A stretch of DNA of 61,197 nucleotides, filler included, from Porpidia crustulata (taxonomy: Eukaryota): NCBI GenBank assembly GCA_964255105.1. It is 12 parts of 12 records of this genome, joined end to end, with 100 filler letters (N's around TTAATTAATTAA, not from the genome) between each part and the next. Parts side by side here need not be neighbours in the genome. Positions count along the whole stretch, not along the records: positions 35,810 to 40,817 come from CAXUWE010001937.1; 11 more parts are not named here. One strand, given 5' to 3'. Position 1 is the stretch's first letter, and every line of letters begins with the position of its first letter. The position numbers and the translations under genes were made by a program. Positions 2,551 to 60,847 of the stretch are shown here, one piece after another. Below the pieces are notes generated by a model. That model saw only the letters and a program-made list of their open reading frames with translations. It ran no database searches and was not told the DNA's origin.

Positions 2551-3810
2551 CTAAGGCTTGTATCCACATTCGCCCAAGCTCGTCTTGAGCGCCTCGAGCG
2601 CCTTTTGGATGTCGTCTCGTTTCGGGTCTGTCACACTCACGCCCATGTGCCCAAATCTTATGTACTTGGCAGCAATTTCCTTGTGGAGGCCGCCGGCGAA
2701 AATGACGCCTTTCTTCATCAGATTCGGCAGGATCTCTGGAGCTTTGATGCCTTCGGGTAGATATATAGCAGTCATGCCGTTAGCTTGGTTTTCGGGCTTC
2801 GAGGCTACCTGCTTGAGGCCCATTGACGTGATGGTGTCCTTGATGCGTTGAGATGTTTCGTGGTGGACAGCGAATCGCTCAGAGAGTGGTCTCGAGAGTA
2901 ATTGTGTCAAGGTGGTATGGAGGGCGTGTACTAGTTGGATGGGAGGTGTGGCGAAATATGACGGCTTTTTGGCTTCGTAATTTTGCATTACTGAAACGAG
3001 TGTCAGCAGTGACTTCGTGGTGAGATAACATTGTAGACATACTAGGTAGCCAGTTTTTTATTGAGGCAAAGTATGACGCTGATGGTGTCTTTCTATTCTT
3101 GAACGTCTCGATTGCTCGCCCCGAGCACATCATAATGCAGAGACCAGGAGGACAGCCGATCGCTTTCTGGCTGGCCGTCAAGACAACGTCGATACCCCAT
3201 GCATCGAATTGAATCTCTTCGCTACCAACACTACATACTCCGTCGACGACAATCAAAGTCTCCGGGCTGACCCGGTGCACGAGATCTGAGACCGCCTTGA
3301 TTTCGCTCAAAACGCCCGTCGAGGTATCTACATGTGTGATGGTTATGAGCTTGAACTTCCTTTCCTTCAAAGTTTTTTCTATTTCTGGAAGCTGAGGACG
3401 GTCTCCGATCGGGGCTTTGAGCTGCGTTGCCTTGACACCGTACGTCTCGAAACAATCCGCGAACGAGTCTGCGAAGTAGCCGGTATGGAGGACCAGCGCT
3501 TCTTCACCGTGCTCTGCTAGATTGGCTGCTACCATATCCCACCCGAGCGTACCACTACCAGAGATGACGAAGGGCTGGGATGCGGGATCTGAAGTTTGGA
3601 CTAGCTTTCGGAGCATCGAAAGCGACTCACCAAAAGTGGCGACGAAAGGGGCGCCAACATGACTCTGGCTGAAACCGATCAGCTCTGTAAGGATACTATT
3701 TTAATAGGCAGAACTGCGTACCTATAATGGCTCATAGACTGAAGAACATTGTCATCGAATTCAATGGGCCCTGGAATTAGGAGCGCCGGGTGCTCTAGTT
3801 GATTCGACAT
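2551..3810 (-). CDS. AGX1: Alanine-glyoxylate aminotransferase (class V PLP enzyme), 3 exons; possible N-terminal extension to ~4026
   Basis: LLIPGPIEF, ISGSGTLGWD, THVDTSTGV, VVDGVCSVG, TASQKAIG (PLP lysine), YFATP, YIRFGHMG. First in-frame ATG at 3810. Confidence 0.92.
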
Positions 3811-4460
3811 CTTGCTCTTCTTTGCGTCTTGTATATCCGTAGGAGATGATCTTGAAAGGGGATTATATGGAATGTCGTCTTGTTCGGTGGACTGTCTTTC
3901 GGTGGAAAAAGGGGTATTGATCTCGAGGACTGGTCTTTTGGACAGATGTCTCGAGATGAGACTCAATCTGGAGCGTGGGGTAGCCAGGGCTAGGGATCGG
4001 AGGGGCACTCGGCAAAAGAGCGCCAGGATGACGATTTTCTAGATATTAGAGGGTTGATGCGCACCAGCGTTAATACGAGCAGATCTCTATCCCGTTATGT
4101 AGCAGAAGCATCTGAGACCCAACATTGACACGTAGAACGTTAAACTGTGACTTTCTTGACTTCATTGACCGAACGAAATCGCGTGCTTAGGGCATACCGA
4201 AATTGTCACGTTCTCCAAGGAATTTTTGGCAGGGATCTCGGATAGCCGCGAAATTCGTCACTGCAGACAGCTCCATAGGCAATTTACTGCGACATATCCA
4301 ATTTCTTCGACGATTTTTCTGTTCAAATCCTACTGGCTTGGCTTGACAAATTATCTCAGTCAGTCTGAAATCAGCCGACTGGATACTGAAAAAAGCCACC
4401 GGGACACACGATAATTGGGGGGAAAAGGGCAGAGCTCAATGGTTTAGACAATCGGTCGCA

Positions 4461-5024
4461 ATGGCATCCAGGCTCGTCCTGGTCCTCGGTGACCTATTCA
4501 TCCCCGATCGAGCACCCGTATGAGCAATTTCCATCCCAAATCATACTCCAGTAGCGCCGATAGACTGATGTTTGTCGAAGGATATACCGGCTAAAGTACA
4601 ACCTCCCAAACTCGTATATCCTACGCGCATGCTAAGCATCACGCCTACAGTTCAAGAAACTCCTTGCACCTGGCAAAATCGGCCAAATACTATGTCTAGG
4701 CAACCTCACCGACAAAGAAACCTACGACTTCCTGCGCCAGATCGCGCCCGACCTTCAGGTTGTCAAAGGCGATTTCGACGTCGAGGCTCCTAATCTTGCG
4801 CTTTCAAAGGTGGTCACGCACGGCTCGCTGCGTATTGGGTTCACGCATGGACACACGATCATACCGCCCGCAGATGCGGATAGCTTACTGATTGCGGCGA
4901 GGCATATGGACGTTGACGTGCTGCTTTGGGGTGGCACGCATAAGTTCGAGGCGTACGAGCTCGAGGGGAAATTCTTCATAAACCCTGGGAGTGCGACGGG
5001 CGCCATGGGGACGGGGTGGCAGGC
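4461..5024 (+). CDS. VPS29: Retromer subunit Vps29 (3'-truncated by contig end)
   Basis: MASRLVLVLGDLFIPDRAP / DIPAK (15-nt exon 4581-4595) / FKKLLAPGKIGQILCLGN...VKGDFD...HGHTIIP...DVDVLLWGGTH...FFINPGSATGA. Confidence 0.95.
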
Positions 5025-5124
5025 NNNNNNNNNNNNNNNNNNNNNNNNNNNNNNNNNNNNNNNNNNNNTTAATTAATTAANNNNNNNNNNNNNNNNNNNN
5101 NNNNNNNNNNNNNNNNNNNNNNNN
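5025..5124. other. Artificial contig linker N44-TTAATTAATTAA-N44; identical copies at 10144, 15259, 20374, 25488, 30601, 35710, 40818, 45925, 51024 and 56112 (each 100 nt)
   Basis: Identical 100-nt structure occurs 11 times, carries six-frame stops, truncates genes, and separates segments of non-increasing length. Confidence 0.99.
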
Positions 5125-6098
5125 CACCTTGATCCGGTGGGCTGCTGGGGATGTTGGGGAAGGTCTGATCGTAACATAATGTATTGTAACAAAGACAATA
5201 ATTTTAAGAATATTGATAGAACTTTTCATGTGCTCGATCGCGATTTATCGCTACGTGGAAAGATTGATACTTGCGATGCTCGCCCTTATTGGGAATAGGG
5301 GGAGCTTGATAGGGGCTTTGTAGTACAAGCTTGACGCAGGGTGAGAACCTCGCTCGAGCCACGAAATCCTCGTTCCTCAGCAATTAGTTCTACTCTCTAC
5401 AAGAAGCACCTACCATTCTTTACTACGCAGCTCAACGTCAGAGGCCTCCATCACAATTTGTCGTATTATCAAAAGTAAAAAGTGTTATTACAAATGTGAT
5501 TAACGTGATTAACGACACGCAAGGTTATATAATGTTGTTGTAATAAACTCTTCGATCATCGAGATACTTAAATATTACTCGCTTCGATTCAATCGTAATT
5601 GCATTTCTCACTTGTATACTTATATATATACATATAAACTTGAGTAATGAAAGTCGCTACGCGGTTGAGGCTCAAACGAATTCGACGCGTCAGCCCTGTG
5701 AGGGTGAAGTGACGGGCATTAGCGTCCGTTCGCTTGCGGAAAAATGGTGCTTTTCCTTTTTGCGACATTAGAGAGCGAGAGCTGAACTAGACCATTATTG
5801 AGCTACTGCTATCAAAGCACCGCGGTTCAACGTTGATCGCTGATGATGAATAAGGCATGGTGGTCTCAATACTTCTTCAGCGGTTACTCTGTTGTTTGTA
5901 TCCAGCTTGTGGTTCTTTCTACCTTCCTCCTTCCTCCAACGTCAATAACATCAGCGACACTTACCACCTCAAATTGGTACAGCATACCCGGCAGTCGCAC
6001 TGTTGATACACATCACCTTCTACATTTGATTGTCACATCATTGCAGCTTCCCAAACACAATCAAACCCTGATTGCAATTGCTCCAGTCAGAGGTCGTC

Positions 6099-9000
6099 AT
6101 GGACACCACTGGTGAACCCATGGATTGGCGCGTCGACACTCCCCCCATTGTCATTCACAAGCGACCTCGAGATGAGACAGAAGATGATGAGACTAGGATA
6201 CGACTAGAAAGAGACACACCTATTCGTTCCATACCGGGAGCTTTTGAGCCTGCGCCAGAACGTCCAATCATAAAGCACGACAATCTCAACCGCTTTGCGA
6301 CTGTTGGCGTCGAGTCTGCGCCGGCTCAAGCAACACCTCAGCTAGGCCTAAGTAGCCAAAAGGGGTCGTTCTGGCAATACGTTAATGGTACCATCACCTT
6401 GATTACATATGTTTCAAAATGTGTTGTCAAATCCATTGGCGCCAGAACATTCAGGGCCGGACGGTTCATCTACGAAAATCGCTATGTCGCTGCCGTCAAT
6501 GCCACCGAAACTGTGACTGCATCCCAGGTCGGAGCAACAGGCCCAAAACGGCGCAAAGTGCAATACAACCCCGACGCATTTACCCGCAACCCTCAACCCC
6601 CCCCACGCCGACCACCCCCACGACTCCAACCTCATCCGTACCATACCAACCCGAGAATTCGACGCCGAAATGAAGAGCGCGCCAGAAAAGAGGAATGGGA
6701 AGCTGCATCGAGAGAGATGGCGGAAGCTGGTCGTCGCCCTGAGCCTACAATGTCCGGTGCACTTCCGATTCCAAACAACTTTGAGCCTACAATCGCTCCG
6801 ACTCTACAGGTCGCCTTCGGAAGTCAGACTCATGTCTCTCATACTCCACAGCTCGCTACCAACCCCAAGGTTTCTACCGGCGCAATGTCAGATGATGCCC
6901 AGCCTCTGTTAGGCGATAAACAATTTGTCACAGAGGACAATTCTGACAGCGACGAAGTTGATGAAGATATGGGGTCGGACAGAGAAAATTTCGCAGACAC
7001 TCTCCCAGAACCGTGGCCACCAGCGGTCATCGATCACATCGACTCTTTCGGCTCAGATATCCAGGACTCAGACTCGGACAAGGACGAACTCATGTCTGAG
7101 GAAAACCTGTCTGAGGGCTCGGATATAGACGAGTTGATGTCTGGAGACGACGACAACGAGTCTCCTACTACGGATAACACGAATCCTCGAGTGGGTCTCT
7201 GGGAGGCAGCCGACCGGCTCCAGTGCGTCCAGGATGTGAATGAAAGCTCTGGTTTGGACTGGACGTCGCCCCTTGATCTTTTCAGCAAGCCCGAGGCACC
7301 TAAAAATCCGCAGTCAGCCACCGGTGGACTAAGCGCCTCGATTATGTTCTCGCCAACAATGACAATGCAGAAGTCATACAAGATCTTCAGGGAGCCTCAA
7401 AGCTCGCCCCTGTCTGACGTCCCGTCAGACTTTGATAGCTTATCGCCTGCTATGACGCCAGTGAGACGATCTCCGCAGAAGTCGGTCGCTTTCTTTGCGA
7501 GCCCAAAGACGGGTAAACCAGTTGATTCAGTCAGGAAGTACTACGTCAACGAGCCAATGTTTGAGATAGTAAGTTCGAGTCCACAGGAAAACAGCGAGAG
7601 TGACAGCATCTCGGGTTTCGTGGATAGTGACGATTCAATCTACGACGACCCTACACGGATAGCAGCCGCAGCCGCTTCTGGAGTGGAAAGTCAACAACAG
7701 CTAGCCTCCGCGTCTAAAGCGACACGGTCAAATCTCCCCCTTATGACCACTAGCTACACTCCCCCTGGAAGTCCGGATCCGGCCTCCTTTTTCCACCCGA
7801 GGAATTTTCTTCCTATCACTGGTGATGGCAATGAAGATGAAATTGCAGGCTGTGCCGACTCTGTGTCGGCTGATGCCTCTTTCATTTCCGATGGATCGCT
7901 CAGACTGGAATCAAAAGATCGTGGGATAGCAGGCTGTAACGGTGACATGCCGGTTGATGCCTCTCTCATATCTAATGGTTCTATAGATTCAGAAAATAGT
8001 GAGGTTGATGGCGCGGTAGGCTACATGCCAGCTTCCGCCTCTCTCCCTATTCATGGACCTATCCTCGCGCCGATCCAGAACAATCAATATGTAGGTCGCC
8101 AGACTCTTCGCCGAACAAACCCATCCTACATGATCACCGCCACCGAGCTCGGGAGTCCAATCAAGAAACGACGCTCGCCTCCAGCCTCGGCAAGAAGCTT
8201 ATCAAGGATTTCTATGGACTCCATGATCATGCAAGAGAACATTGAACACGCTCCCGCTCTGGTTAATATACCAGTCATGGCACCTGTGGTACATAAGCAT
8301 GCTGCGAACCAGGGCGAGAATACTTCACCTGCGGAACGTACCCAGGCACCTTCAAAAGGAGATAGTCCGGCTAGACAACGGAGAGACTCTCCGATGCAGG
8401 TCATGGCTTCTGAGATTGCCGCTACCCCTGGACCTCAGGCTACCGGCAGCGATCAGAGTACACCGTCATCCGATCTCGTAGCTCAATTGGGAAGCCTCAA
8501 GATGTCAGATCGTCGCCACTCTGTGCGTAGGATACAGCATGAACGAGAAGAGCGGAAACTTCGTGAGAAGGAAGAGAAGCGTGTTGCCGAAGAAAAGGCA
8601 CGCAAGGAGAGAGAACAGGCGGAAGCGATCGCAGAAAAGGCACGACTAGAGGCGGCAAAAGTGGAAGAAGCAGTCCGTCTTGAAAAGGAAGCCGAAGAAG
8701 AACGCAAGAGCCGGAGTGTTCGCGAGATCCCGGTCGAGGAGGTCATCCAGCCTTTGTCTGGAGAGTGGGAAGCCAAGGTTGACGTAGCGATGGCCCAAGG
8801 GCGCAATGACGTACTTGCCTCAACATCTACTGGAACCACATTGACTCGCAAGGATCTTGGAACGCTCTTCCCTCAAGCCGGTAGAGACCCAGCCAGTGGG
8901 TGGCTGAATGATGAGGTTATCATGGCCTACCTTCAAGCTGTTGTCGACCACGGACGGGAGATCTCTGGCTACAAAGATGGCGACGTTCCCAAATACCATG

Positions 9001-9602
9001 CCTTCAATACATTCTTCTTCAAGAACATCCGTGACAAAGGTGTCCAGAGTGTCAAGCGTTGGGCCACCAAAGCCAAGATCGGCGGCAAGAGCCTCGACTC
9101 CGTTGAGCGCGTCTTCATCCCCGTGCACTCCGGCGCTCACTGGACTCTCCTGGTCGTCAGCCCCATGGCCAAGACCATCGAGTACTTTGACAGCATGGGC
9201 GGCAGGACGGCACCGTTCGTCAAGGCGGCGCAGGAATGGCTGAAACAGGAGATGGGGAAGAGCTACCACGACGAGGAGTGGATGGTTCTGTTGCCGGAGG
9301 GCGGAGGGCCGCAGCAGGACAACGGGAGTGACTGCGGCGTCTTCACGGTGACTACGGCAAAGATGATCTTACTCGGGATCGACCCCATGGCCTATTCCAG
9401 CCTGGATATTCCTTTGCAGCGGAAGAGGATGGTGGCGGAGTTGATGAACGGCGGTTTCACGGCGGACTTTGCGCCGAGTTTTACGTTCGAGTCAGAGGAT
9501 GATGGGGATGAGGTCGAGGATGAGGTCGAGTATGAGGAGGATGGTAGCGATGAGGTTGAGGACGAGGTCGATTACGAGGACGAAGATGAGGAGGAGCTAT
9601 GA
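6099..9602 (+). CDS. ULP1: Ulp1-family SUMO protease (C48) with long disordered N-terminus, coiled coil and acidic tail; intronless, ~1167 aa
   Basis: GWLNDEVI, FNTFF, VKRW, IPVHSGAHWTL (His), YFDS (Asp), PQQDNGSDCGVF (Gln/Cys). First ATG at 6099. Confidence 0.9.
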   Translation: MDTTGEPMDWRVDTPPIVIHKRPRDETEDDETRIRLERDTPIRSIPGAFEPAPERPIIKHDNLNRFATVGVESAPAQATPQLGLSSQKGSFWQYVNGTITLITYVSKCVVKSIGARTFRAGRFIYENRYVAAVNATETVTASQVGATGPKRRKVQYNPDAFTRNPQPPPRRPPPRLQPHPYHTNPRIRRRNEERARKEEWEAASREMAEAGRRPEPTMSGALPIPNNFEPTIAPTLQVAFGSQTHVSHTPQLATNPKVSTGAMSDDAQPLLGDKQFVTEDNSDSDEVDEDMGSDRENFADTLPEPWPPAVIDHIDSFGSDIQDSDSDKDELMSEENLSEGSDIDELMSGDDDNESPTTDNTNPRVGLWEAADRLQCVQDVNESSGLDWTSPLDLFSKPEAPKNPQSATGGLSASIMFSPTMTMQKSYKIFREPQSSPLSDVPSDFDSLSPAMTPVRRSPQKSVAFFASPKTGKPVDSVRKYYVNEPMFEIVSSSPQENSESDSISGFVDSDDSIYDDPTRIAAAAASGVESQQQLASASKATRSNLPLMTTSYTPPGSPDPASFFHPRNFLPITGDGNEDEIAGCADSVSADASFISDGSLRLESKDRGIAGCNGDMPVDASLISNGSIDSENSEVDGAVGYMPASASLPIHGPILAPIQNNQYVGRQTLRRTNPSYMITATELGSPIKKRRSPPASARSLSRISMDSMIMQENIEHAPALVNIPVMAPVVHKHAANQGENTSPAERTQAPSKGDSPARQRRDSPMQVMASEIAATPGPQATGSDQSTPSSDLVAQLGSLKMSDRRHSVRRIQHEREERKLREKEEKRVAEEKARKEREQAEAIAEKARLEAAKVEEAVRLEKEAEEERKSRSVREIPVEEVIQPLSGEWEAKVDVAMAQGRNDVLASTSTGTTLTRKDLGTLFPQAGRDPASGWLNDEVIMAYLQAVVDHGREISGYKDGDVPKYHAFNTFFFKNIRDKGVQSVKRWATKAKIGGKSLDSVERVFIPVHSGAHWTLLVVSPMAKTIEYFDSMGGRTAPFVKAAQEWLKQEMGKSYHDEEWMVLLPEGGGPQQDNGSDCGVFTVTTAKMILLGIDPMAYSSLDIPLQRKRMVAELMNGGFTADFAPSFTFESEDDGDEVEDEVEYEEDGSDEVEDEVDYEDEDEEEL
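9500..9600 (+). repeat. Imperfect duplicated acidic unit (DGDEVEDEVEYEE / DGSDEVEDEVDYED) at the Ulp1 C-terminus
   Basis: gatgaggtcgaggatgaggtcgagtatgag-like unit occurs twice. Confidence 0.7.
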
Positions 9603-9884
9603 GGTCCAGGGACGAGTACTCCATTTTTTCTTCGCTTGTACAAACGCAAACCAGCGAGTCAGTCATGTATCGAGTGCCGTTTCCAATCTTGTTTTCTTCA
9701 GCCACTCAGAGGCGTTTGTGTCATGCCGTCATGATGGGAGAGATTTTGTGTTTTTTTGGATTCTGAGTTTACGGGCGTTTTGTTCTATACCCCCGCCGAA
9801 ACCGAGTCGCAAGTGCTGCACCGGTTCGGCTTTTTGTGGTTTTTTTTTGGGAGATGGGGAGATGGAGAGATGGAGGGAGTGAGA

Positions 9885-9912
9885 GTAGGGTAGGGTAGGA
9901 TAGGATAGGATA
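9885..9912 (+). repeat. Short (TAGGG/TAGGA)n microsatellite in the Ulp1 3' region
   Basis: gtagggtagggtaggataggataggata. Confidence 0.6.
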
Positions 9913-10243
9913 AATTGGAATGAGAATTCTTCCGTGGTTTGTGTGTGCGTGTGTGGTGCGTGACCTGTGAGATTGGCTGTTACGGGGTTAATGTAAATTG
10001 AGTGACTTTGCATTTTGTGTAGAGTGTTTTGGGAAAGCGTGGTGGAGATGGATGTGGACGGATTGGAACTCCAACCCCAAAGATAAATCTCATAAGTATT
10101 CATTCTCATCTATCTATCTAACTACCTGTAACGGGAAAAGAAANNNNNNNNNNNNNNNNNNNNNNNNNNNNNNNNNNNNNNNNNNNNTTAATTAATTAAN
10201 NNNNNNNNNNNNNNNNNNNNNNNNNNNNNNNNNNNNNNNNNNN

Positions 10244-11031
10244 TGATTGGCTAGATTAGCGGCTTTGGTGGCGCCCGAGAGCATATTGAGAAAACTGGTG
10301 CTGGAGCTGCATTTGCCTCGCGCTTGGGGACGGCCTGATGCTGGTGCTGGAGCTGGTGCGGGTAGCATGTTTGGTAGACTGCTGGTGATGTCGCCGGAGT
10401 TCTTGTCATGGCCGTCTGGCATGTAGCCTTCGCTAGAGCCGTCCTTTCTGACGAGCATGAACAAAGGGTTGTTGGGGGTGCCGCTGGAGGAGACGGAATT
10501 GAAGGTGGAGAGAGATGGGTACTGTTGCGAGCACTTGTTAGTGATTCAATTGATGGAGAGGATATAGCTATATCATCGACGGTTGTCTAGGAGGGTGGCT
10601 ATGGAAGGCATAGCTTACATGGATCTCAGCAAAACTTTTCATGTTCGCAAGGAGTTCTTCCAGCCTCGTGTACTTGTCGCTTAGGTTCGCAAGCCAGACC
10701 CGTCCGTATTAACGACGACGTATGTATTGTCGACGCTGAGAGCGACCAGTTTGGTGCCAGCGGTCTTGGAGCTGCGCAAGCGGACTGCAAGAGGTTCTGG
10801 AATGCCGCACCATTGCATCTTGTTCTTGTCTTTGACGACATAGCTGCCGCTGGGGCCCAGGGTGATCATCGTGGTGGGGATGTCATGTTCCACAAAGCCT
10901 TTGGCGTTGACAGAGAGATATTTTTCCAGGGGAGCGGGGAGGCCGTGGTTCATGCAGTAGAGCTTATCATCAGCATCTTTATAACCAATATAGTAGGAGT
11001 CGGCGGGACCGAGGGAAAATTCATAAACGTC
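10244..11031 (-). pseudogene. Hypothetical fungal protein with repeated LGP-x-(G/D)-SY units; apparent 1-nt frameshift near 10697; runs off contig end; 5' end uncertain
   Basis: DVYEFSLGPADSYYIGY...ITLGPSGSYVV...VALSVDNTYVVVNTDGS continues in another frame as LANLSDKYTRLEELLANMKSFAEIH. A GTAAGC...CTAAC...CAG intron then joins in phase to YPSLSTF...FMLVRKDGSSEG. Confidence 0.5.
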
Positions 11032-11870
11032 CTAATACTATAGATCAAGCAGATGTAGAACTCCCCATTCCATCTTGTACCCCCAAGGCTTGATCTGTTG
11101 GGACGAGCTCCTCTGAGGACTGCAAACCACTTATATTTATCGCACAATACCTGGCTTTTCTACTACGTCAATTTTGACCTAAGTTATATGACCATACCCT
11201 TAGGGATGATAATGCGCCGTTCAACTTCCTTAGCAATAGCTGTGATGTTTAACCTCACCCCTCTAAATTTCCATCAGCGTTATAAAACGCCTGGGGATAA
11301 TTCAACCACACAATGGTTTCTTCTTCCATGAAAGCACCTCTTAAATGTGCATTATTGCAGAGAGCATGCAACCCTACTAAAGGCACCAAAAATAGCCTTG
11401 TTCCATGGTACGATGTCGGTTGTCTATTGCATCGGCACAGACAAGTCTTGAATGAGGCATAGGTAGATAGCTGTATATCGGATTGCCCAACAGAAGCTCT
11501 GGAGAGCCATTGATGGATGTGGTCAGAGCGAGCTATGCTCGACAGAACTGCACACAATAGCAACGAGCTACTAAGATTTTTTAGTGCCCGATCCGTGGAT
11601 CATTGAGCAATACACGTGCCGTCGGTCGAGTAGCGACCACGTCAGGAGTAGTCAATCCGTGGCTAAGAAAAACCAGAGGAAGTGCACAACTTGGTTATCT
11701 TTGCAGGACTACCCAGTGTTGGAATTTGGGGGTTTATTGGCAATCTCCTCCACATGAGGCTGGGGACGCTAGTGGAGAATATCAATGCCATCAATTCCTG
11801 ATCCGCCAACACCCAGAGTCAGAGCCTCAACCTTACAGTTTTGGCAGGGCATTAGGCTAAGACACTGGAA

Positions 11871-33609: not shown

Positions 33610-35559
33610 ATGCCTCGCGTTACTCGCGCCGCACTTCGCTCAAATGCGCTTTTAGAAGAGTCGACCACAGCGGCGTTGACACCTTTAGCTTTGATACCGG
33701 TCAAAGAACGCGTCGCTCTTGGAGAGATCACCGATAATCGGACAAGGGAGATGCCTACACTAGAATCGATTGGAGAGGTCAAACAGACAGGGAAAATGGA
33801 TTCTGGTAAGTCGGGATGCGGCAAAGGAAAGAAAGGGAAAGTTGTGAAAAAAGGGAAAAAGCAGGTTCAGAAGATTGAGGGAGGTAACGTCGAGGTCCTG
33901 GAAGACGACAATCAAAGTGACGCAAGCTCCGCGGTGGAAGAAGCTTGTCAGGATCTCATGAAGGAATGCTCTGGAGGTAATACACTAATTTACCCCTTAA
34001 TATCGGGACCTCGCTGACTAGGGACGTCAATAGAAATCCATCAGGTCGTTCTGCACGACCAGCGCCCACGCAGCCCACCTTCACCAGCCGTTTTTGCGCT
34101 TCGGAATGTGCTGTCCCCCAAAGCTAAGACACCGCGTTTTGACCCGAAGATACACAAGTCAGACATAACCATGACCACCCCTGTTACAGACAGTCAAGAC
34201 GAATTTGCCAATGCAGTTGTCTCTCAGACCCCAGCCAGAATATTGTCTATTGACGGGGCTATGGAGGATACTAGCAAATCACCAATTGAGAATGTCGCGA
34301 CTCCGCTCGAAGAAGTCTCGTTTGCAGCACAAATACAGACGGGATCCCCAGCGAAGTCAAGTAGTCGAATTGAAGACTCAATGGAAGCTATTGATGCATT
34401 CGAGGACGAAATTGAGAAAATGGGAGAGCTTTTTCCGGTACTAAAGGATGAACCGCAACTGCCAACGGAGGGGACGAACAAGGGGGGATTGTTCGGCGAA
34501 TTCGTTGATAAGTCGACAAACCTTGAGCGAAAAGCCTCAGGAAAGTCAAAACCAGTAACTGCGATGGCGGGTGGCCCCAAAGTAGTGCGCAAGGCAACCA
34601 ATCCAACTCCAGCTCAAACCCCGGCAACGCGTTCAAAGCAGCTTACAACCAGGAAAACAACAGCAGCGGCAGGTGTCTCAAGGTTGTCATCCATAAAAAG
34701 AACCCCAATTCCCAAGATTTCTCCCACGCTTGGACCCGCAAAAGCCCCAGCACCCACCCACGCGCGCGTCAGCTCCCTCCAAAAGGCACCTTTCCAGCCA
34801 GCCAAATCCTCAAAACCGCCTACGCGCCCCAGCTTCGAGCTGCCGGGCGAAGCCATCTCCCGCAAACTAAAGGAGCAGCGCGAAGAGCGCCTCAAAAAGG
34901 AAGGCCAAGGCGAAGTCCAGAAAAAGACCTTTAAAGCCCGACCTGTACGCCTGAGCCACGCCCCTGTGGTCAAACCTACTGCAACTAGCAAGGCCCGCAT
35001 GAGCCTAGCGAAGGCGGATCCTACCGAACGCACGACTGTCAAGAACCAAGCACCGGCAATCAAACCCCTGACCCCTCGCATATCCATGGCTACTAACGAT
35101 AAAAATAAACGCCTCTCCACTCTCCGCGTCGGCAAACGCATCTCTACTGTTCCTACCAACAAACCCGCGTGCGCGGCTCGTGGACCCTCCCTTGGCGGCT
35201 CTACCATCTCTTGCACCACATCCTTGACCCCCCGCAACTCACTCCTCACAACTACGAGCGCTCCCCGCGCAGCAAACGCTCCTCCGGCAGCGACCGGCGT
35301 CCGTCAGACCTCAAGAGGCAAAGAGGTCTTCGGCAGAACGAAGGTAGAGCTCGAGGCGCGTGACAAGGAGAGGAAGGAGAAAGAGGAGGCGGCGAGGAAG
35401 GCGAGGGTGGAGGCGGCGGAGAGGGGGAGGCTGGCGAGTCGGATGTGGGCGGAGAGGCAGAAGGTTAGGAAAATGGGGGGTGGGGCTGGTGCGGCGGTAG
35501 AGGCGAAGGTGACTAGAGAGGGAGAGACAGAGGCGGGGGTGCAGGAGGTGGTGGGGTGA
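33610..35559 (+). CDS. Basic, disordered protein with FKARP motif and C-terminal coiled coil; candidate TPX2-like microtubule-associated protein (intron 33977-34033)
   Basis: MPRVTRAALRS, RVALGEIT, RIEDSMEAIDAFEDEIE, KSSKPPTRPSFELPGEAISRKLKEQREERL, FKARPV, RGKEVF.R...AAERGRLASRMWAE. Confidence 0.75.
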
Positions 35560-36620
35560 TGGTGTGGTTTGATGAATTCAAAGTAAGTAGGAGCGGGAGT
35601 ATCACGGGGTGTAGACTCGGGAAAGACCCGGTTTGATATCGGTCGTTGGGGCCTGTCTCTCCCTGCATCATGAGCATCGTGAGCATCAGAACATCCCATA
35701 GTCTCACGGNNNNNNNNNNNNNNNNNNNNNNNNNNNNNNNNNNNNNNNNNNNNTTAATTAATTAANNNNNNNNNNNNNNNNNNNNNNNNNNNNNNNNNNN
35801 NNNNNNNNNAGGTAGAGGAGTAAGGGAGTACGGGAGTACGGGAGTTGAAGGAAGGTAAACCGGGGGGGAGGGGGTGAATGGGATTGTGTCTGCGTGTTTG
35901 TTTGCAGCAGTAGATACTTTTTTACCATTAGGTTTTCTTTCGACTATGTGGCCGGCTAGAAATTACGACGTCACATGCGTCTTGTTTGCTCCTCTTGTTG
36001 TCCGTATTCAAACGTATTCACCACCTCTGCAAAACCTCGGTCGCTTATAATTCAACTTCTCATACCCTATTCGTGACCCCGAAAAAGTTTTGGCGAACAA
36101 CTTGAGATTTATTATGATTGTACTGTTAGAAATAGCAATAACGAGGCACAGAAGACATGAAGGGTGTGCTACAATGATGGATGATCTTCTCCAGTGCAGC
36201 GGACTTCCCGTACAGCGGATTTTTTAGGTGTTGAAACCAGGTTTACGTAGAGATTGTGAAGAGGGAGAATTTTACAAAGATTCTACCAGAGTTGGTCACG
36301 ACAAATAGTGTGTAGGAAGAGGGTTTCGTGATCGTATCGATTGAGATTTCTTTTGTGTAAAGCAATTAGGAAATGACGCTTAGAGGCTCTGATTATTCTT
36401 GATACGGTTCTAGAGCGACGCGTAGAAGAGGTAGAGTAGGGAGAGGCAGCAAGAATGCTTGCTGAGTGTTGCTTCCCTATAAGACCATGGATATTAAAAC
36501 TCCCAAGCAAGCAGTGTGAATAAGATAAGAGTTGCAGGCTAAAAGATAATAGTGCTCAGTATCTGATGACAGGGATACTCTCTGAAGCCCGGATATGAAG
36601 CCGTTGGGCCTCGTGTCTGC

Positions 36621-36965
36621 CTATTTCGATTGCCACGACCAGCGTCCATGTGCCCATCGACTCGCCTCCTTATTTCGTTCCCCCATGTCGTTAATAAAGC
36701 GATTCTTTTCTTCTTCCCTCTTTTCCCTAGCTTCGGCCTCCCGAGCTTCCCTCGTCTCCTTGTCTTTCCTTGCCTGTTCTTCCTTCTGGGAAATTATATC
36801 GCTTAAGTTCTCAGCGTTGCTAACGATCTCCTTTCGATCAGCTAATCTAAGCTCACCCAGGACGATGCTGAGTAATTCTTTGGCTTGATTGGGGTCTGCT
36901 GTCCATAGTGCTCGGAGGTTGCTTCGGATGTCCTCACTCAGACTCGGTGTGAAATAGGCGCTCAT
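36621..36965 (-). CDS. Small orphan protein A (114 aa), member of local three-gene family
   Basis: ATG in ACCATG context; helical N-terminal motif with DP at 24-25; charged coiled-coil tail; ungapped similarity to the ORFs at 38393 and 39275. Confidence 0.6.
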   Translation of the reverse strand: MSAYFTPSLSEDIRSNLRALWTADPNQAKELLSIVLGELRLADRKEIVSNAENLSDIISQKEEQARKDKETREAREAEAREKREEEKNRFINDMGERNKEASRWAHGRWSWQSK

Positions 36966-38392
36966 GGTTTGTCCCGAGACAGTGTTGGTTTGGAAAGAAA
37001 ATTTTGGATAATGAGGTAGAGATTATTTGATTTCACCAAGGAGATGAAGTGTAAAATATACAGAGCTGCACGACTGCTATACTGAGCTTCCGAAGAAGGT
37101 CTACAAAAGAGAGATCGAATATGACTAACAACAGTCGCGAGGAACGATGTTTTTATACACTCTGGACGCGAGGAATACGAACACGAAATAATTGTGCGGT
37201 GGTTCAACAGAAAACAAACAGACTCGGCAAACCCGAGCAGATTGCTACAAACAGAAGAAACGAACAACAAAATCCTGGAGTCAACAAATCTTTACCGACT
37301 TGCGAACATGAAGTATATCATTAGACAATCCTTTGATTTTGCTGAGCTGTTGCTTGACCCAATGTTATATCTTACCGGGCCCTTCATCTTGCTTCAGATT
37401 ACTCCATGAGCAGGGGCTCACATATCTCTTTTGATAGCTGATCGAGACTAATGCCTTACATGAGACGCATCTTAATCGGCGGTATCCCACACGATGCACT
37501 TTATCGTAGGGATAGTCCAGCCAGGACCAGGACTTCCTTATCGTTTAGGTCAGGGTAGATGGCCTAGACGTGCGTCCTCACCCCAGCGGATGAGTGCATG
37601 AAAGTCTACGCTCGACATTAGTCATTTGGATTATTTCTGCCTATTGAAATCGAGCGGAACTGATGCTTTGTTAATACGTGGATTGATATGGTTCTTTACT
37701 TCCTATCATTACTGTCAAGCCCTAACCCTAGGCGAAATACCCCGTTGAGGAAGCTTGTATCTCACAATTTAGTTTTCTCAATCCACACATGAAGACCCTC
37801 CAAGTTCCACATGTGGAAGTCAGTCATCTATCGTAAACTCGATTGACACTAACCTTGGCCAGTCTGATACTTTCTTTATTACAATATTTGAGACACCGGA
37901 TCTTAAATTCGAAGTTGTCGAGCGAGACAAAAAAATGAGCTACAGGTCCTTCGATCATGAAGTCGTCTCAGCCAGTCGTGGACGAACAACCTGAGATCTT
38001 TCGTATGTCTTGGAACACAGCACTGACATGTCATCTTTATTTCACGACCGTGTTCACTCCAGGTCTGAGCTGATTCTATTACTTCTGGAACCATATGACT
38101 GTGACAAGCTGTCTCAGTGTGAACGTTGCCAATTTCAAATAATCCATCATTGTATATATGACGAGTCCAGAGGGATATCCAGGTAACTTTTATGCATCGC
38201 GTTAACTAGGTACATCAGCGTTGAATTACAGAAACGTATTCTATCAATATCGTCTCACTTTCTCTTCTAGGACGTCACTACAGCTTTCGCATCTCATTCA
38301 CTATATCATCTTAGAAACCCATCAATTTCACAATCTCTTCGTACTTTTCCGCCCAATATTCAAAGCCTCGCTTCACCGACTTCATACTACTA

Positions 38393-38731
38393 ATGGACCC
38401 CATTACAATACTGGAAGTGAGCTTAGGCATCACTCGCGCCCTTGTTGACTTGAGCAGCAAAGATCCTGATCGAGCTGACGGGCTGATCAGCTATTGCCTC
38501 GCTGGGATCCCGGATCAAAGACAAGCGATGATCAATACCAGAGCCAAACTGAAAAAAGTGGAGAGACGGCGGACGCCGCTGGTCGCGATGGCTGAGAGGT
38601 TGAACACATTTAGAAGAGCAGATGGAATGAAAGCCTTGACGGATAGACATTGGGAGATTATACGAGGCAAAATAGCGAGACGGATGAAGGAAGTGCGCGC
38701 GAGGAATTCAGTCGAGGACGAGGTTTTTTGA
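38393..38731 (+). CDS. Small orphan protein B (112 aa), member of local three-gene family
   Basis: ATG after a C/T/A-rich leader; DP at 24-25; 12/44 ungapped identities to protein A. Confidence 0.6.
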   Translation: MDPITILEVSLGITRALVDLSSKDPDRADGLISYCLAGIPDQRQAMINTRAKLKKVERRRTPLVAMAERLNTFRRADGMKALTDRHWEIIRGKIARRMKEVRARNSVEDEVF

Positions 38732-39274
38732 TGAAAGCTATGGTGATGCTTCAAGAAACTTTGGGCTGAGTTGAAGAAATCGTATGTATCAAGTACACGT
38801 CAGGCTTGCAAATTTCTAGAGCTTTTCTGCAATAATGTTGGAAGTCTTTTGTCGTTCAGATTTCACAAATATCGATTCCCGCGGTCTACTTTCTATGGCT
38901 CATCGCGTTGTCTATTTTCGTCCACCAAATCAGAGATTATATCAAATTTGAGGTAGGACAGTATGTCTATGTTAGTATATCGATCTCATTGTGCGAATGA
39001 AAAATCGCCAACAGAAGCGACCTGGTTGTTTTTTGGTATTCCAAAGCATGGCTGTATTTGTTTGCTAAGCTGCGAACCACGATGCAATTTCATCTATGTG
39101 CTAGTACGGTTTGTATGGTCAAGATGGCTCTCTATCATCAATCCATTGAATCCACTTAAGTATGCAGCTTTCTCCTTCGAATTAAGATCAACACGCTTGT
39201 CAATTCTTGTTTACAATAACCAACTCATCACCTAGGAAGAAGAGCATCATCACCCTTCGTTACCCCATGTCCTG

Positions 39275-39748
39275 ATGGAGGTCCCCAACATAGCCTCCCG
39301 ATACGCAGGCAACGTCAAGAGCCTGGCCGTCACCCTCCTCGAAAACCTTGAGCAATTACGCATCGAAGATCCCGAAGGAACTGATACTATATCAGCCAGG
39401 CACCTTGGGGACCTCTCCGTCAGTAACCAGAAAATAATCACCGACAAGGCCCAGAGAGCGAGACGTTGTAAAGAAATAAGGGAGAATCAGGGTGCAGAGC
39501 AAAGCAGACAAGCGGCGGGAGCTGAGCGAGCGAGGTCTAAACAGGAACCGTTGGATAATTGCCAGAGATGCAGCCGCCCGAGAGACAACAACAGGAGGGA
39601 TCAAGATGATAACCGCCCGAGAGACGACAACAGGAGAGACCAAAGTGATAGCGGGCGCCGAGGGGCCCGGAGAGGGAATGAAGGTGGAAATCGAGAACGG
39701 GATAGGAGAAGGGACGAACGAAGGTATCAAAGAAAGAACATCGGGTAA
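39275..39748 (+). CDS. Small orphan protein C (157 aa) with R/D/N-rich tail, member of local three-gene family
   Basis: 13/44 ungapped identities to protein A; 39-nt tandem duplication in the tail. Confidence 0.6.
   Translation: MEVPNIASRYAGNVKSLAVTLLENLEQLRIEDPEGTDTISARHLGDLSVSNQKIITDKAQRARRCKEIRENQGAEQSRQAAGAERARSKQEPLDNCQRCSRPRDNNRRDQDDNRPRDDNRRDQSDSGRRGARRGNEGGNRERDRRRDERRYQRKNIG
39574..39651 (+). repeat. 39-nt in-frame tandem duplication (RPRDNNRRDQDDN / RPRDDNRRDQSDS)
   Basis: ccgcccgagagac starts at 39574 and again at 39613. Confidence 0.85.
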
Positions 39749-41539
39749 TAACGTTCCAGTGCAGTGAGCGCGGTTTTCGAGTTTCCTGCGCCCCGGCTAC
39801 TTTGGATTCTGCTTACGGTGCCTAGATGGTGTTGCTTGATTATGTGATCTCGTGTGGGAAAGAGTGAGTGGCTGGCTATTTTCATTGATTAGGAGGGTGC
39901 GTTTGATTGCTGTAAGGATTTGATGATGCCATTTTGCGTTGTCTACTATACGCGCTCGTTCTCAATATTCTGATTTCGATCATTCATTTTCAATCTGTCA
40001 ATTCTTTTTATCCGTTGACTCATTACTTGAAGAACCTCACTCCTGCAAAATTTTCTTGTCATCAGTTTTATCTTTGCCGATCACTTTGATCTACAACTTT
40101 ACGCCCTATAACTTTCACATTCACAAGACTTTTCCCAATCTACACCCCAATCCGCCAAACCTCAATCTTAGAAATACGACCGCAAGACGCATTAATCCCT
40201 TTCCTCCGCACTATGCCTCAGCTCATTGAAAGCGCCAGATCATTTTAATCTGACTTCTAAGCATCCCTCAAAGATCTAGGTAGCCGCGTGTGCGTGCTAA
40301 ACAGCCATCTCGACGGGTTTTTCACGATGTGTTACTTTCACACGGGGGTACGGTATTGACGGCCTATAAGTAGGATGTCTAGCTGGCTTGAGCTGATGAT
40401 CTGATCTTACTTCATTTGGATTGAACAATCAATTGTTTCCTACACATAACACAAAGTCAAACTTTTGTCCTTACACCGTATCATCCTCTTTCGTTCTGGG
40501 CCTACATCTCGTATCTCATCACCGTCTTGCGTGTCTACTTCCCAGAATTCGTTTTGTCGATTCATCATGGCTTAATTGCTAAACAATGTCTCGAGACTAC
40601 CTAACCAGGATAAGACTTCGCCTGTTTCGGGAGAGAAGACCACTGTGCATTGTTTGTTATTTTCTGAGCTTTGGCACAATCGCAAAATGTACGCTTTGTC
40701 GTGTCTTGCCAACGTGGCTCTCACGAGAGTGCTTCCATGTCTCCCGTCGTCGATACAATAGTTTGTCCTTATAATTTCCACTATATAACCCCAATCTCAC
40801 ACCCTCCGTCACCACCCNNNNNNNNNNNNNNNNNNNNNNNNNNNNNNNNNNNNNNNNNNNNTTAATTAATTAANNNNNNNNNNNNNNNNNNNNNNNNNNN
40901 NNNNNNNNNNNNNNNNNGTGGAAAGGAAAAGGAAAGAGGGGATGTGAGTTTGGGGGGAGGGGTGGTTGGAAGTACGATTGTGTAAGCAGCAACTAACTAT
41001 CCCGCCCCGTTCTTTATGAGATTTATCCCTGCTCTCGCATACACAAACCAACGCAAATGGAATATCAAAGCAAACGACGACGAATCCGCGCACCTGCACC
41101 CAGCTAGATATATGTCATATAAAAAGCTTCCTACCCATTCAATTCCCAAAATTTTTCAGAGCAGAAGTTCTGTCGCGTAGTTAGTGCGCATCGCCAATTT
41201 TACAGACTTAGACTTCTCACGTCTTTTTATATTCTTATTTATTTTCGATTTGTCTTTGCGTTTTTTCGATTTTGATATTTCATGAGATAGGATAGGATAG
41301 GAAAGGCTCTGGCGACGGTGTTGCTTTGATTGGATAGGGGAGTGGAGGTTATGAAGGTGGGTTGGGTTGGTTGATGGTTGTGGTATCATGTTTTTCTTAT
41401 TCTTTTTTTTTATTCTCCTGCTGTCGCGTTTCTCTCGCGCGTCTTTCTCTATTCATCTCACTGTCTGCTAACTTATGTATCAAGCAAGTGATATCAGATA
41501 AATAATTCGTCGTTTTATTAAAGTACTTCCAGGATTGAG

Positions 41540-57200: not shown

Positions 57201-60200
57201 TCATATATGCGTTCCCATCATCATAGCCTCCCTCAACTGAACTTCCCTTTTGATATCCAAATGGTCTAACTCTTCCGCTTTTACATCGTCCCAATAGACA
57301 GCGGTGAATTCATGAGATTTGTGGGTAATTTTCGCGGATCGGTAACATTTGAAGCAATAGTCGAAGTCGGTGCATATCAAGCATTTGTAGCGAGTGCCGA
57401 ATATTATCTTTTGAGAGTCAGTTTCTTGCCATTGAAGGATCTGAAATATAGGTAACTCACATACTCACATCCATCGCAGTATACATTCGAATGCATTAAC
57501 GAAGTCCTTAATTTCTCGACCTCGAAGCTTTCAGGCGTTGTTCCGCGAGGAGGTCTTAGAAATGCTACTACCTTTGGGTCTCCATATTCATCATCTTCAT
57601 AAAATGAGGCAACTGCGTATGGCAGCCATTCTTTCCCATTTCCAGGAACACCACCTGCATCCAGCAGCCGTCGTACAATAGGCAAGGGTGCGCCTTTTGC
57701 TGCCCAAACCAGAGGTGTCCAGCCGTCAATATCAGGCTGTTTCGGGTCGAGTCCATGTTCTAGCAAGAATTCGACAGCTTCTCCCGGACCCGTGGCTGCA
57801 TGATGTAAGCATGTACGCCCTTGCTTATCCACTTTCTGGAGGTCAAACCCAAGGTTTGCGAGGTATTCAAGGCATTTGAGATTGCCTTCATTAGAAGACC
57901 TGTGAAGCTGATTCCTTCCTTCTGGATCCGTAGGCAGATGTTCTGGGAACTTGGAGACTAATACTTTGAGCAGAGGAAGATGGTCTTTATAAGCCGCTCT
58001 TCGTAACGCATCATCGACCATGCCAAGTTGAATTTGTTTTGGAAGATCACACCCTAAGAGCATTTTTGTAACTTCCAGATGACCACATTCGCATGCGATT
58101 GAAAGAGGTCCCAACCCATTTCGGTCTCTGAGTGTGACGTCGGCGCCACTCTTTAGAAGTAACTGCGACAGATGAAGGTGGCCATCCATGACAGCGAGGT
58201 GCAATGCCGATTCTCCTCTGAGATTTTTAGCATCTATGTCAGAACCATGGGTCAGTAGCAAGTTCTTCACTGCTAATGAATAATTCAAAGTCCGGACTTG
58301 TTGTACCATCCGACCTCGATACTCCAACAAGCTTGACCTGAAAATGTCGTGCGCGGATATGTCATTGCAGTCCAGGGTTGCCAGATGCAGTGGAGTATTT
58401 CCCGCGCCGTCCTTAACGCGAGGGTCCGCTCCATTGTCAAGTAACATTCGTACCACATTCATGTGGCCGCAGCCAGCGGCTCGGTGCAATGCAGTATCTC
58501 CCCAACTCGATTTGATATCTATAATTCGTGGGTCTTTAGCAAGTAAACACAAGACAGTATCCTCCAATCCATAGAAAGAGGCAAGCCACAGCGCATGTAC
58601 GTTCTTCGGATACAGCTGAGAGTAGCCGAAGCCAAAAGACTCCCGAACACACAAGACTTGGATAGAGGCCGACAAGTTGGTACTACATGATAAGAAAGAC
58701 ATGATCAGATCTTTGCAGTCTTCTTCTCCCGAGGCATGGACGTGATGTCCCCATTTAAAGACTGCGTATTTTAGTAAAGACCACTGACGTGTTCTTATTT
58801 CGTAACTTTCATGCTCATAGCACGGCCCTTTGCCAAATTCCTCAAACAGGAGATACGTAAGACAAGTCTTCGCCATCTCTGTCTGGGCTTTAGGGAACAC
58901 AATATCTGCTTTGCGATTCAGGTATTCTTGTAAGGTGTAGTGTACTAAGCTCAAGTTGCCGCTCTCTTTCTGATAGACTAAAAGGCCGTTGCAAGCTGAC
59001 AATAACAATTCCTCGTCTGGGATATTGTCTTCGTCCAAGGTCCGATCCCCTATTTCGACAGCAAGAGCATGCTGTAGCTCTACCATTGTCAGAGGCCTAG
59101 AAGCATAGAACACCCAATAAAGAGCTTTTCGTGCTAGATAATTAAGATCTTGATGTTGGGCGTGAACTCTTTCGAAAGTTTCATCGTATGTCTTGCTGAG
59201 TCCCTCAGGTAGTGACATTAGGGCTTCCTTAAACTTTCGCAAAGTTGTCGCCGTGGCTAGTGAGTCTACGTGAAGACGTGCCTGTAGAAACCTGGTTGAA
59301 GCCTTGAGCTCATCAAATGCGTACGATAAGAAGGCGATGAACTCACATTCCGTCGGCTCTGGCGGCTATTGTTGACGAAATCAAGGTATCCAAGGTCGGA
59401 TCTTTCCTTACATGGGATTGAATTCTATCAGATGTTGCGACTCGCTCTTGGATGTAGTGTAAAAGGTCATCCCTTTGCGCCTCGATTTTCAGCCGTTTCA
59501 CATTTGGGAGTTGACGCTCAATATTCGGTAAGTTCCTTGATGTGATCAGTGTATTCATCTTCGGTCTCAAATGATACAATTCCGCTAGCAGTTGACTTCT
59601 CCATTCTTCAGGGCATTCATCAAACGCATCGACTATGAGAAACACCTTGGTACATCTCATGACAATACGGCGAAGCCATTGTACACTCTCCCCATATGAA
59701 AGGCAGTGTTCTCCTGATTTATGGGCTTCATAGCTTGCCGTTAGTTCTTCCGGCAAGGGAGACTCTAATGATGCTAACTGGCTAATAAGACTCATCAACA
59801 GATTTGGCACCGTCTGCTCTGCCGCGTCTTTGTAGCTAAAGTATATATATGTAAGGCTGTGGGCTTCCAGATCGACAAGGTTTTGTATATGATTTATGAT
59901 ATAGGACCTGTCGCAGAATCAGCACCGGAAAGACACCCGAAAATGTCAATACGCTCACGCTAACACCGTTTTACCAGCACCGGCTATATAAGTCAGCACT
60001 CCTCCACAACAAAGTGAATCGCAGATATATATTGACGTGAACACTCACGTATGCCAGGACACCATAAATTGGCTCCAGTAGCACTCAACCAATGCCGATA
60101 TTCCTGTGTCTTGGTGAACCATTGAGCAGTACCATCTTGCCGATTTGGTATGTTGAAGGTGTCCAAGTGCTTCCGATAGAACTTGGCTGGAAGGGGTGAA

Positions 60201-60847
60201 AGCCAATCCCACACTTTCCGAGTGTAATCTCTAGACTGAGCCAGAGCTAGTTTATCAACCGAACCAGAGATTGTCTTGGTTGAAACTCGTAGATCTTCAA
60301 CGTTTGCAGATATTGAGACGTTCCCATCCTTTAGTATGGTCATATCAGCGGCAATGCTTGTCAGCGTCTGTCCAACCAGGTCTAATCTTTGCAATGCAGC
60401 TGCTGATGAATCAATGTGAAGCAAATCCAAGGCCAGAGCCAGGTCATCCCTTAGCTCGTTGCCGAGTTCTTTGAGTTTAGCAAGAGTGCTCTCCTTGAAA
60501 GGATATAAGTATCTATGGAGTTGAGCCTTTGCTTTGGCTTTCCAACCTTCTTGCAAAGGAACAAGGCGTACTTTGTCCAGCTTTTTCTTGAGGCTTTGAA
60601 AACCTTCCTCGACAGATTTGATACAATCTTCGACTCTTTCTACAACATCAGGATCATAAAATTTATGTTGAATCGCTGACGTGAGGAGTAGCAAAGTCTT
60701 GGTCAATGCTTCGATCGAAGCATTCATCTGGCTCACGTTGGACGGCGCGTCTTTCCACGAGCCATAGTAATCTAGTAGACCCTGACAAATAGTGATTCCG
60801 AGGGAGAGAAGACCCGCTACGCCAGAAGAAACAGCAAGACCCTCCAT
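57201..60847 (-). CDS. Fungal NLR-like protein: HeLo-like/SesA-type N-terminus, NACHT, winged helix, ankyrin repeats, C-terminal ZZ zinc finger
   Basis: MEGLAVSSGVAGLLSLGI...YPFKESTL; DWLSP; LWCPGIP/GAGKT (Walker A); FLIVDAFDEC (Walker B); ADGM/FLQARLHV; RPLT..ELQHAL; L.HYTLQEY; multiple G.T.LH.A repeats; CDGC...RYKCLICTDFDYCFKC......H..HEF. Confidence 0.92.

Follow-up and report, generated by a model that had tools for sequence, protein, structure and literature searches.

Three small open reading frames (ORFs) of Porpidia crustulata, referred to here as genes A, B, and C, are diverged paralogs, and they belong to a protein family that is absent from the curated libraries and has a recognisable signature, a three-helix model predicted with confidence, and, in at least two organisms, a tandem arrangement. 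The genes lie within 3.1 kb of one another on a 5,008-bp contig piece (35810..40817), the eighth of the pieces that make up the window, i.e., the whole 61,197-base stretch of DNA that was analysed; nothing else on this piece is recognisable. With about even confidence, A, B, and C are taken to be real, anciently duplicated genes of an undescribed fungal family of small (about 95–180 aa) intracellular proteins. The family is new and uncurated and of a common kind, namely lineage-restricted, tandemly expanding small genes. Lineage-restricted, fast-evolving small families are common in fungi and are mostly never explained, and the addition of one more is useful rather than surprising. Its practical value is that of a seed alignment for annotation, and of a worked case in which a real family stands behind weak pairwise similarity.

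Gene A (114 aa; 36621..36965 on the minus strand, stop codon included) is the most diverged member of the family, gene B (112 aa) occupies 38393..38731 on the plus strand, and gene C (157 aa; 39275..39748, plus strand) is nearest to the family consensus of the three. The conserved block of A (residues 8–51; 36813..36944, minus strand) comprises a helix, D24-P25, a helix, and the start of a long helix. In B (residues 8–51; 38414..38545, plus strand) it includes the 9-mer KDPDRADGL, which is common to outside relatives, and in C (residues 16–59; 39320..39451, plus strand), which has kept a longer first helix, D32-P33 is found at the helix junction. Aligned without gaps, these 44-residue blocks are identical at 12/44 positions between A and B, 13/44 between A and C, and 9/44 between B and C, and seven columns (L, L, D, P, L, I, and A) are invariant across all three, with the Asp-Pro pair (DP) at residues 24–25 in both A and B. 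The three ORFs, the first two of these identities, the invariant columns, and the placement of DP reproduce in full what had been described in a first-pass annotation of the window.

The statistical case for the block depends on how many of the sequences are considered at once; the pairwise signal is weak and the three-way signal is strong. When the best 44-residue ungapped segment of each pair was compared with 1000 shuffles, 28/1000 were at least as good for A-C and 17/1000 for B-C, and BLASTP aligned A with C at an E-value of 2e-5. When the three-way block was instead scored over all offsets, the best register was the one originally claimed, with a sum-of-pairs score of 103, and none of 1000 shuffles (mean 26, standard deviation 10.5, maximum 89) reached that value. 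The shuffle test proposed in the first-pass annotation thus came out in favor of the block, which beats 1000/1000 shuffles and is not indistinguishable from shuffled amphipathic helices. The identical register is also recovered independently by MAFFT. In a leave-one-out test, a profile of two of the sequences was scanned over all 122,132 six-frame 44-aa segments of the window, and in each case the omitted member ranked first after the two queries, scoring 56 against 30 for the next segment, 79 against 13, and 71 against 17.

Members of the family are also found outside the window. A profile of the N-terminal part of A, B, and C (62 positions) was run with hmmsearch against 1,835,955,588 representative proteins at E ≤ 1e-3 and yielded 13 proteins: A and B themselves, six multi-repeat proteins, and five small proteins with a single matched stretch near the N-terminus. 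A (P0001) and B (P0002) are called proteins in the public collection, in which no called protein corresponds to C. The five small relatives are P0005 (142 aa; E 4.1e-6), P0009 (146 aa; E 4.5e-5), P0010 (179 aa; E 4.9e-5), P0011 (118 aa; E 9.7e-5), and P0013 (144 aa; E 6.8e-4). All five have the same order of parts as A, B, and C, i.e., a first helix, then SLDSLDQLRKKDPDRADGLLATHIGGISEDRQKKIFKMAESLRV, then a K/E/R-rich tail, and none has a name or a Pfam family. Word-index protein searches, which covered near lengths only, retrieved nothing beyond A and B themselves with A and B, and nothing with C. In the reciprocal direction, a hidden Markov model (HMM) built from the five outsiders only placed C (4.5e-8), B (2.4e-7), and A (0.0076) as the top 3 of the 1,279 ORFs of the window, the next E-value being 3.8. 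The HMM search that had been suggested as a check therefore turned up relatives and led from them back to C, B, and A, and the description of the three genes as orphans has to be abandoned, given five outside relatives and the nine related loci described below.

The family set assembled from these searches consists of A, B, C, P0005, P0009, P0010, P0011, P0013/14, and the second gene of the nine related loci (L001–L009). Its signature is L-x2-L-x3-D-P ... I-x3-A, with AD.LL after DP and RQ before I; L, L, D, P, I, and A are invariant in a 9-sequence alignment, an H is absent from A and B, and the exact RQ is absent from A and C. Members are 95–179 aa long, and the matched stretch starts at residue 1–36. 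In the domain, A, B, and C are each 25–35% identical to the outsiders and 18–25% identical to one another, and the greater closeness of each to the outsiders marks the copies as old. The earlier view of them as old and strongly diverged paralogs is upheld by these values. Gene B aligns with one of the related loci by tblastn at 46% identity over 35 aa (E 9e-5), and a blastn comparison of the contig with the related loci found no nucleotide similarity. No relative was found among viral contigs and prokaryote genomes by pattern scans with two peptide patterns of limited sensitivity. Among the multi-repeat proteins matched by the profile, P0006 and P0007 have an N-terminal signal-like segment followed by 7–8 repeats of the form 'L.ELR.KDPEKFKE', with weak Pfam matches to Imm49. 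They have the helix-DP-helix motif in common with the family, but their repeat family looks unrelated; a bacterial origin for the two would be a guess from their sequences.

The related loci L001–L009 are metagenome contig loci retrieved by a pattern scan with the outsiders' alignment. Their identity to P0009 is 95–100%, and they evidently represent variants of a single organism. In 9/9 of them, a second, different member of the family (95 aa; E about 1e-16 with the family HMM, of whose training set it was not part) lies about 0.9 kb downstream of the first on the same strand. A zinc-dehydrogenase gene near the array is split over several ORFs, as an intron-bearing gene would be, which suggests that the loci are eukaryotic and probably fungal. 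In L005, the array (2857-11612, plus strand) consists of about eight small same-strand ORFs at a spacing of about 1 kb, upstream of and including the two certain members. According to hhalign, array ORF g1 is a probable member (41%, P 2.8e-4) and g2–g5 are possible members (19%, P 1.2e-3, collinear over 63 columns); g6 has no hhalign match to the family and is not a member. ORFs g2–g5 (133–177 aa) form a subfamily of their own, whose members have one unit at the N-terminus and another at the C-terminus (AYTLTSLAILL...). A third array gene proposed by a local iterative HMM search was not counted, as the match spanned only 23 columns and the profile was inflated by the nine near-identical loci. 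The family duplicates locally, as seen from its three members within 3.1 kb in P. crustulata and from the tandem copies on one strand in a second organism.

Comparison of the nine loci indicates that the coding regions are conserved relative to their surroundings. Segregating sites number 12/708 in the coding sequence of the two certain regions and 86/1,516 in the spacers (Fisher p 6.6e-6), and indels within coding sequence are confined to lengths of 6 and 15 nt. Between L005 and L009, the array ORFs are 1.7% diverged and the spacers 4.8%, and g1–g5 and g8 are ungapped. ORF g6 is probably not a gene, because its comparison between loci contains frameshifting gaps and its divergence is spacer-like. 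An insertion of about 0.86 kb lies between g6 and g7 in L009 (8597-9459, versus about 9455/9370 in L005), with collinear flanks that are 94–96% identical, and it is probably present in L006 as well. An apparent presence/absence polymorphism at g6 was an alignment artefact caused by this L009 insertion. Overall, the proteins of the relatives are kept but quickly evolving.

For A, B, and C themselves, the evidence for coding is moderate. On a codon-frame score trained on the seven Pfam-confirmed genes of the window, the N-terminal domains reach +0.28 (A), +0.23 (B), and +0.40 (C) bits/codon, compared with +0.20 to +0.37 for the confident genes; the in-frame scores of the whole ORFs are +0.28 (A), +0.13 (B), and +0.07 (C). 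Guanine plus cytosine (GC) content is 0.50–0.54 in the three ORFs versus a contig mean of 0.45. No signal peptide or membrane segment is evident in the three sequences by eye, a predictor not having been run. A switch in C to the overlapping frame 39492-39767 by way of an intron was considered and rejected, as the lone GT...AG candidate found by eye spans about 30 nt, which is below the length of a fungal intron. A direct repeat of 16 nt (15/16 identical) is located at 36674-36689, inside A on the opposite strand, and at 39256-39271, just upstream of the start codon of C; by a rough estimate, about 0.1 such pairs are expected per 5 kb, and the pair is probably due to chance.

According to AlphaFold2, the N-terminal domain is helical. 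The model of A (from a 9-sequence alignment; mean predicted local distance difference test score [pLDDT] 76) has helices at residues 11–23, 25–38, and 41–112, the last of which is continuous, with block-mean pLDDT values of 78–88 over residues 41–100 (85–88 over 51–90) that fall to 67 and 56 at the end. The model of C(1–80) (from a 10-sequence alignment; mean pLDDT 83.5, core above 90) has helices at residues 6–31, 33–46, and 49–79. In both models the invariant Asp-Pro sits precisely where the first helix gives way to the second, and an Asp-Pro at such a junction fits a helix N-cap. The shared motif had originally been described as a helical hairpin, of which the helices and the position of DP between two of them are borne out; the unit predicted in C and in the outside relatives has three helices rather than two. 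In A and B, the first helix is short. In-frame upstream extensions, considered as a possible upstream exon for A and B, contain no family-like helix. With the short first helix and an upstream region devoid of family-like sequence, either the domain has been reduced in A and B or an upstream exon has been missed.

The tails differ from gene to gene. That of A (36624..36812, minus strand) is a K/E/R-rich mixed-charge segment, predicted as one long helix, with a W-rich motif at its end; it contains 26% K+R and 24% D+E (net +1) and 24% hydrophobic residues. The tail of C (39452..39745, plus strand) is an arginine/aspartate-rich mixed-charge segment with an RG-rich patch (K+R 32%, D+E 20%, net +12, hydrophobic 13%). 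It includes two tandem 39-nt (13-codon) copies (39574..39650, plus strand) that are 87% identical and encode RPRDNNRRDQDDN and RPRDDNRRDQSDS; these are a recent in-frame internal duplication, by which the C tail is growing. The tail of B (38546..38728, plus strand) is basic (K+R 28%, D+E 15%, net +8) and, judging from its composition, probably folds into helices instead of extending as a single charged one. The tails of A, C, and most relatives have 26–37% K+R, 14–35% D+E, and few hydrophobic residues, and the net charge of the outsiders' tails ranges from -7 to +10. The tails had been called variable and basic; they are indeed variable and highly charged, but the charge is mixed, with the net values given above. 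Several relatives have KKKK or KKRK clusters that resemble nuclear localisation signals.

Two compositional classes offer a comparison for these tails. K/E/R single alpha-helices (SAHs) resemble the tail of A, for which the model has a single unbroken helix of about 70 residues, and an ER/K-type SAH composition together with a continuous predicted helix was seen for the A tail only. Arginine-rich mixed-charge domains resemble the tail of C, which is likewise R/D-rich (10.1101/771592, PMC9324279). SAHs and mixed-charge domains are compositional classes and not homologous families; the B tail fits neither. Arginine-rich mixed-charge domains drive localisation to nuclear speckles (10.1101/771592, PMC9324279), and the K/E/R (KER) region of CAF-1 is a DNA-binding SAH (PMC10335832).

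The proteins have a two-part plan. In the N-terminal helical domain, of about 45–65 residues, the conserved Asp-Pro is predicted to cap the second helix at a tight junction, with the hydrophobic L, L, L/I, I, and A forming the core. This domain, in which conservation extends to a hydrophobic core and a small number of surface residues (AD, RQ, and often H), would be the constant part, responsible for docking or oligomerisation. The second part of the protein is the rapidly changing mixed-charge (K/R/E/D) tail, which is one long helix in the model of A. By analogy with the two compositional classes, the tail would be a K/E/R single alpha-helix or an arginine-rich mixed-charge segment, through which the protein could touch nucleic acid or enter nuclear condensates. 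The paralogs would then be versions of a single small nuclear adaptor that differ in their tails. This role, in which a domain for docking or oligomerisation is joined to a tail that binds nucleic acid or condensates, is the favored one, although less likely than not.

Several observations weigh against reading A, B, and C as real members of one family with this plan. The best A-B segment was matched or beaten by 110/1000 shuffles and differs from the one claimed, and BLASTP was not significant for A-B or B-C, so that the similarity of those pairs alone is not significant. The whole-ORF codon scores of B and C are no better than those of some overlapping control frames (+0.13 to +0.21), and ORFs of 112–157 codons would, by estimate, be no great rarity in 5 kb of random sequence. 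Among public sequencing runs, the only one listed as matching the stretch is a small DNA run, probably the source, and RNA runs are absent from the list. A and B are without the long first helix of the relatives, and their gene models are perhaps incomplete or the domain reduced. Fold searches gave generic helical matches only, and the B tail, being 40% hydrophobic, does not fit the extended-helix picture. In addition, coding changes among the relatives are mostly non-synonymous, with 3 synonymous and 10 non-synonymous changes across the nine loci and 13 versus 25 codons between L005 and L009, and the constraint on the proteins is consequently weak.

Known families were searched by sequence and by structure. 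No Pfam family matched A, B, or C even at E ≤ 10, and a Pfam scan of the ten-member alignment gave only low-complexity tail noise among the best 25 of 59 families. In a search of PDB sequences with the A/B/C profile, the best match was to the C-terminal helices of mycobacterial GyrB (E 0.0067), which was taken as chance, all rows being one protein; no SYNCRIP or eIF3j chain was matched. The original statement that the genes belong to no known family thus holds for Pfam and PDB sequences. The structural comparison that had been recommended gave it no counterpart to set beside the family, as Foldseek found no match in the PDB for the C(1–80) model at E ≤ 1e-3. In the ESM Atlas, the best scores for B were 0.77 and 0.76 at low recognition, and P0009(1–78) had no usable match. 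A wide VIA-align search with C(1–80) returned generic helical arrangements throughout, the best (Z 6.2) being yeast eIF3j. This match, to the eIF3j C-terminal helical domain (6zce chain t, 3bpj), covers 71 residues at a root-mean-square deviation of 2.8 (human eIF3j, Z 4.9); the domain of C and that of eIF3j are both three-helix units beside charged regions. However, identity is 8–13%, there is no Pfam eIF3j match, and such Z-scores are usual for helical models by the calibration of VIA-align itself.

The nearest lead among known families is the N-terminal acidic domain of hnRNP Q/SYNCRIP (PF18360, hnRNP_Q_AcD), which is likewise small and all-helical and has a conserved 'L..L(R)..DP.RA..(I/L)L' helix-turn-helix stretch. 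It is unlikely, but worth setting out, that the domain of A, B, and C belongs, as a very remote member, to this known small tri-helical class, i.e., a fungal stand-alone version of an RNA-binding accessory domain. Two of the six repeat proteins matched by the profile, P0008 and P0012, carry hnRNP_Q_AcD repeats (Pfam E 1.1e-6 and 6.9e-20), and hhalign aligned the family with 12 repeats cut from them at 82% (P 1.1e-5) over 26 columns (L..LR..DP.RA..LL). However, these targets are the profile's own best matches, picked from 1.8 billion, which biases the P-value, and the third helix is unaligned. PF18360 did not match A, B, or C at E ≤ 10 and is absent among the best 25 of 59 families for the ten members; no acidic-domain chain was listed by Foldseek or in 50 rows of VIA-align, an absence from lists that does not exclude one. 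The two domains also differ in the third helix and in everything else: hnRNP_Q_AcD precedes RNA recognition motifs in large RNA-binding proteins or sits in long repeat arrays, whereas the domain of this family stands alone before a charged tail. If it were a stand-alone relative of the SYNCRIP-type RNA-recognition accessory domain, or if the arrays acted in genome conflict, the family would gain greater weight. In another explanation, one that is quite unlikely, the proteins are stress protectants resembling hydrophilins or late embryogenesis abundant (LEA) proteins, with the charged tail as the active part and the N-terminal domain as a folding or oligomerisation cap. Their small size, the absence of an obvious signal peptide by eye, and their very hydrophilic mixed-charge tails (13–24% hydrophobic in A, C, and most relatives) speak for this, and multi-copy arrays are common among stress-protein genes. 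Against this, the conserved part is the N-terminal domain and not the tail, the B tail is not hydrophilic, and LEA, hydrophilin, and dehydrin families of Pfam were matched neither by A, B, and C nor among the best 25 of 59 families for the ten members.

The tandem arrangement also recalls genetic-conflict or non-self-recognition systems, such as poison-antidote drive or allorecognition, in which paralogs would recognise each other through the helical domain. Tandem arrays in two organisms, deeply diverged paralogs, fast protein evolution in which non-synonymous changes are no less frequent than synonymous ones, and a narrow distribution (only 5 relatives among 1.84 billion representatives) all speak for such a role, which is nonetheless improbable: the sequences recall no known drive or het components and match no N-terminal family of fungal STAND proteins, the nine related loci are nearly identical (0.2–3.6% coding divergence) instead of showing the deep allelic polymorphism of recognition loci, and the only Pfam-recognisable genes near the related array are downstream dehydrogenase fragments. 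A more specific form of this idea, in which the arrays supply combinatorial small proteins that pair paralog-specifically through the three-helix domain and act as a poison-antidote, drive-like or self/non-self switch with the charged tails as effector, is distinctly improbable; if true, it would add a new class of fungal conflict genes without similarity to the Spok, wtf, het-s, and NLR systems. That the similarity is one of amphipathic helices brought about by chance, and that some or all of the ORFs are not genes, is very improbable and already largely refuted. The pair scores of A-B and B-C do fall within the shuffle range, the ORFs are short, C is not called publicly, and RNA runs are missing from those listed, but no shuffle attains the three-way score, the omitted member comes first among the six-frame segments, the outsiders-only HMM picks out the same three ORFs, and the coding sequence of the relatives is conserved relative to the spacers. 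Most improbable of all is a reading in which the ORFs are what is left of a transposon or another repeat, perhaps after repeat-induced point mutation (RIP). In its favor, the contig is short, has a higher AT content (GC 0.45) than its neighbours in the window, and small contigs are often repeat-derived; yet none of the 47 stop-to-stop ORFs of at least 45 aa on the piece has a Pfam match at cut-off, transposase, reverse transcriptase, and integrase included, no direct or inverted repeat longer than 38 nt occurs on it, the RIP indices are normal (TpA/ApT 0.74; (CpA+TpG)/(ApC+GpT) 1.17) and like those of the other 11 pieces, and only one sequencing run contains the stretch. The result for the 47 ORFs also agrees with the first-pass annotation, in which no other gene was recognised on this 5-kb contig, and the mapping to a known transposon that it had named as a ground for rejecting the cluster was not found. 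The reading of A, B, and C as members of a fungal family of small intracellular proteins is the one retained here.

The window as a whole consists of 12 pieces of about 5.0 kb each, joined by N44-TTAATTAATTAA-N44 spacers, which were placed by locating the runs of N. The piece with A, B, and C, for instance, lies between spacers at 35710-35809 and 40818-40917, and features on different pieces are not neighbours in the genome. Other pieces encode Rpb1, Rax2, a HlyIII-type receptor, an Ulp1 protease, and an ankyrin-repeat NLR-like gene, a gene content that marks the organism as a fungus and, judging from the NLR-type gene, most likely a filamentous one. The NLR-like gene, on the last piece, comprises two ORFs, of which one (57404-59242, minus strand) has ankyrin repeats and a GPI-inositol-deacylase winged-helix domain. 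The upstream ORF (59993-60847, minus strand) has weak matches to PigL_N (E 0.011), SesA (0.054), and NPHP3_N (0.0017), the last at the start of NACHT, and was the next-best match in one of the leave-one-out scans with a score of 17, other background scores being 14–16. The start of B (MDP..., a helix, and KDP) loosely resembles that of PigL_N (PF17111) or SesA (PF17107). Kinship with these families was rejected, since A, B, and C do not match them at E ≤ 10 and the family HMM matches ORF 59993-60847 only at E 13 and over residues 183–205, not at the N-terminus. On the piece preceding that of A, B, and C, a 483-aa ORF (34108-35559, plus strand) that has no Pfam match at E ≤ 0.001 is rich in K, R, S, T, P, and A, and probably encodes a disordered protein.

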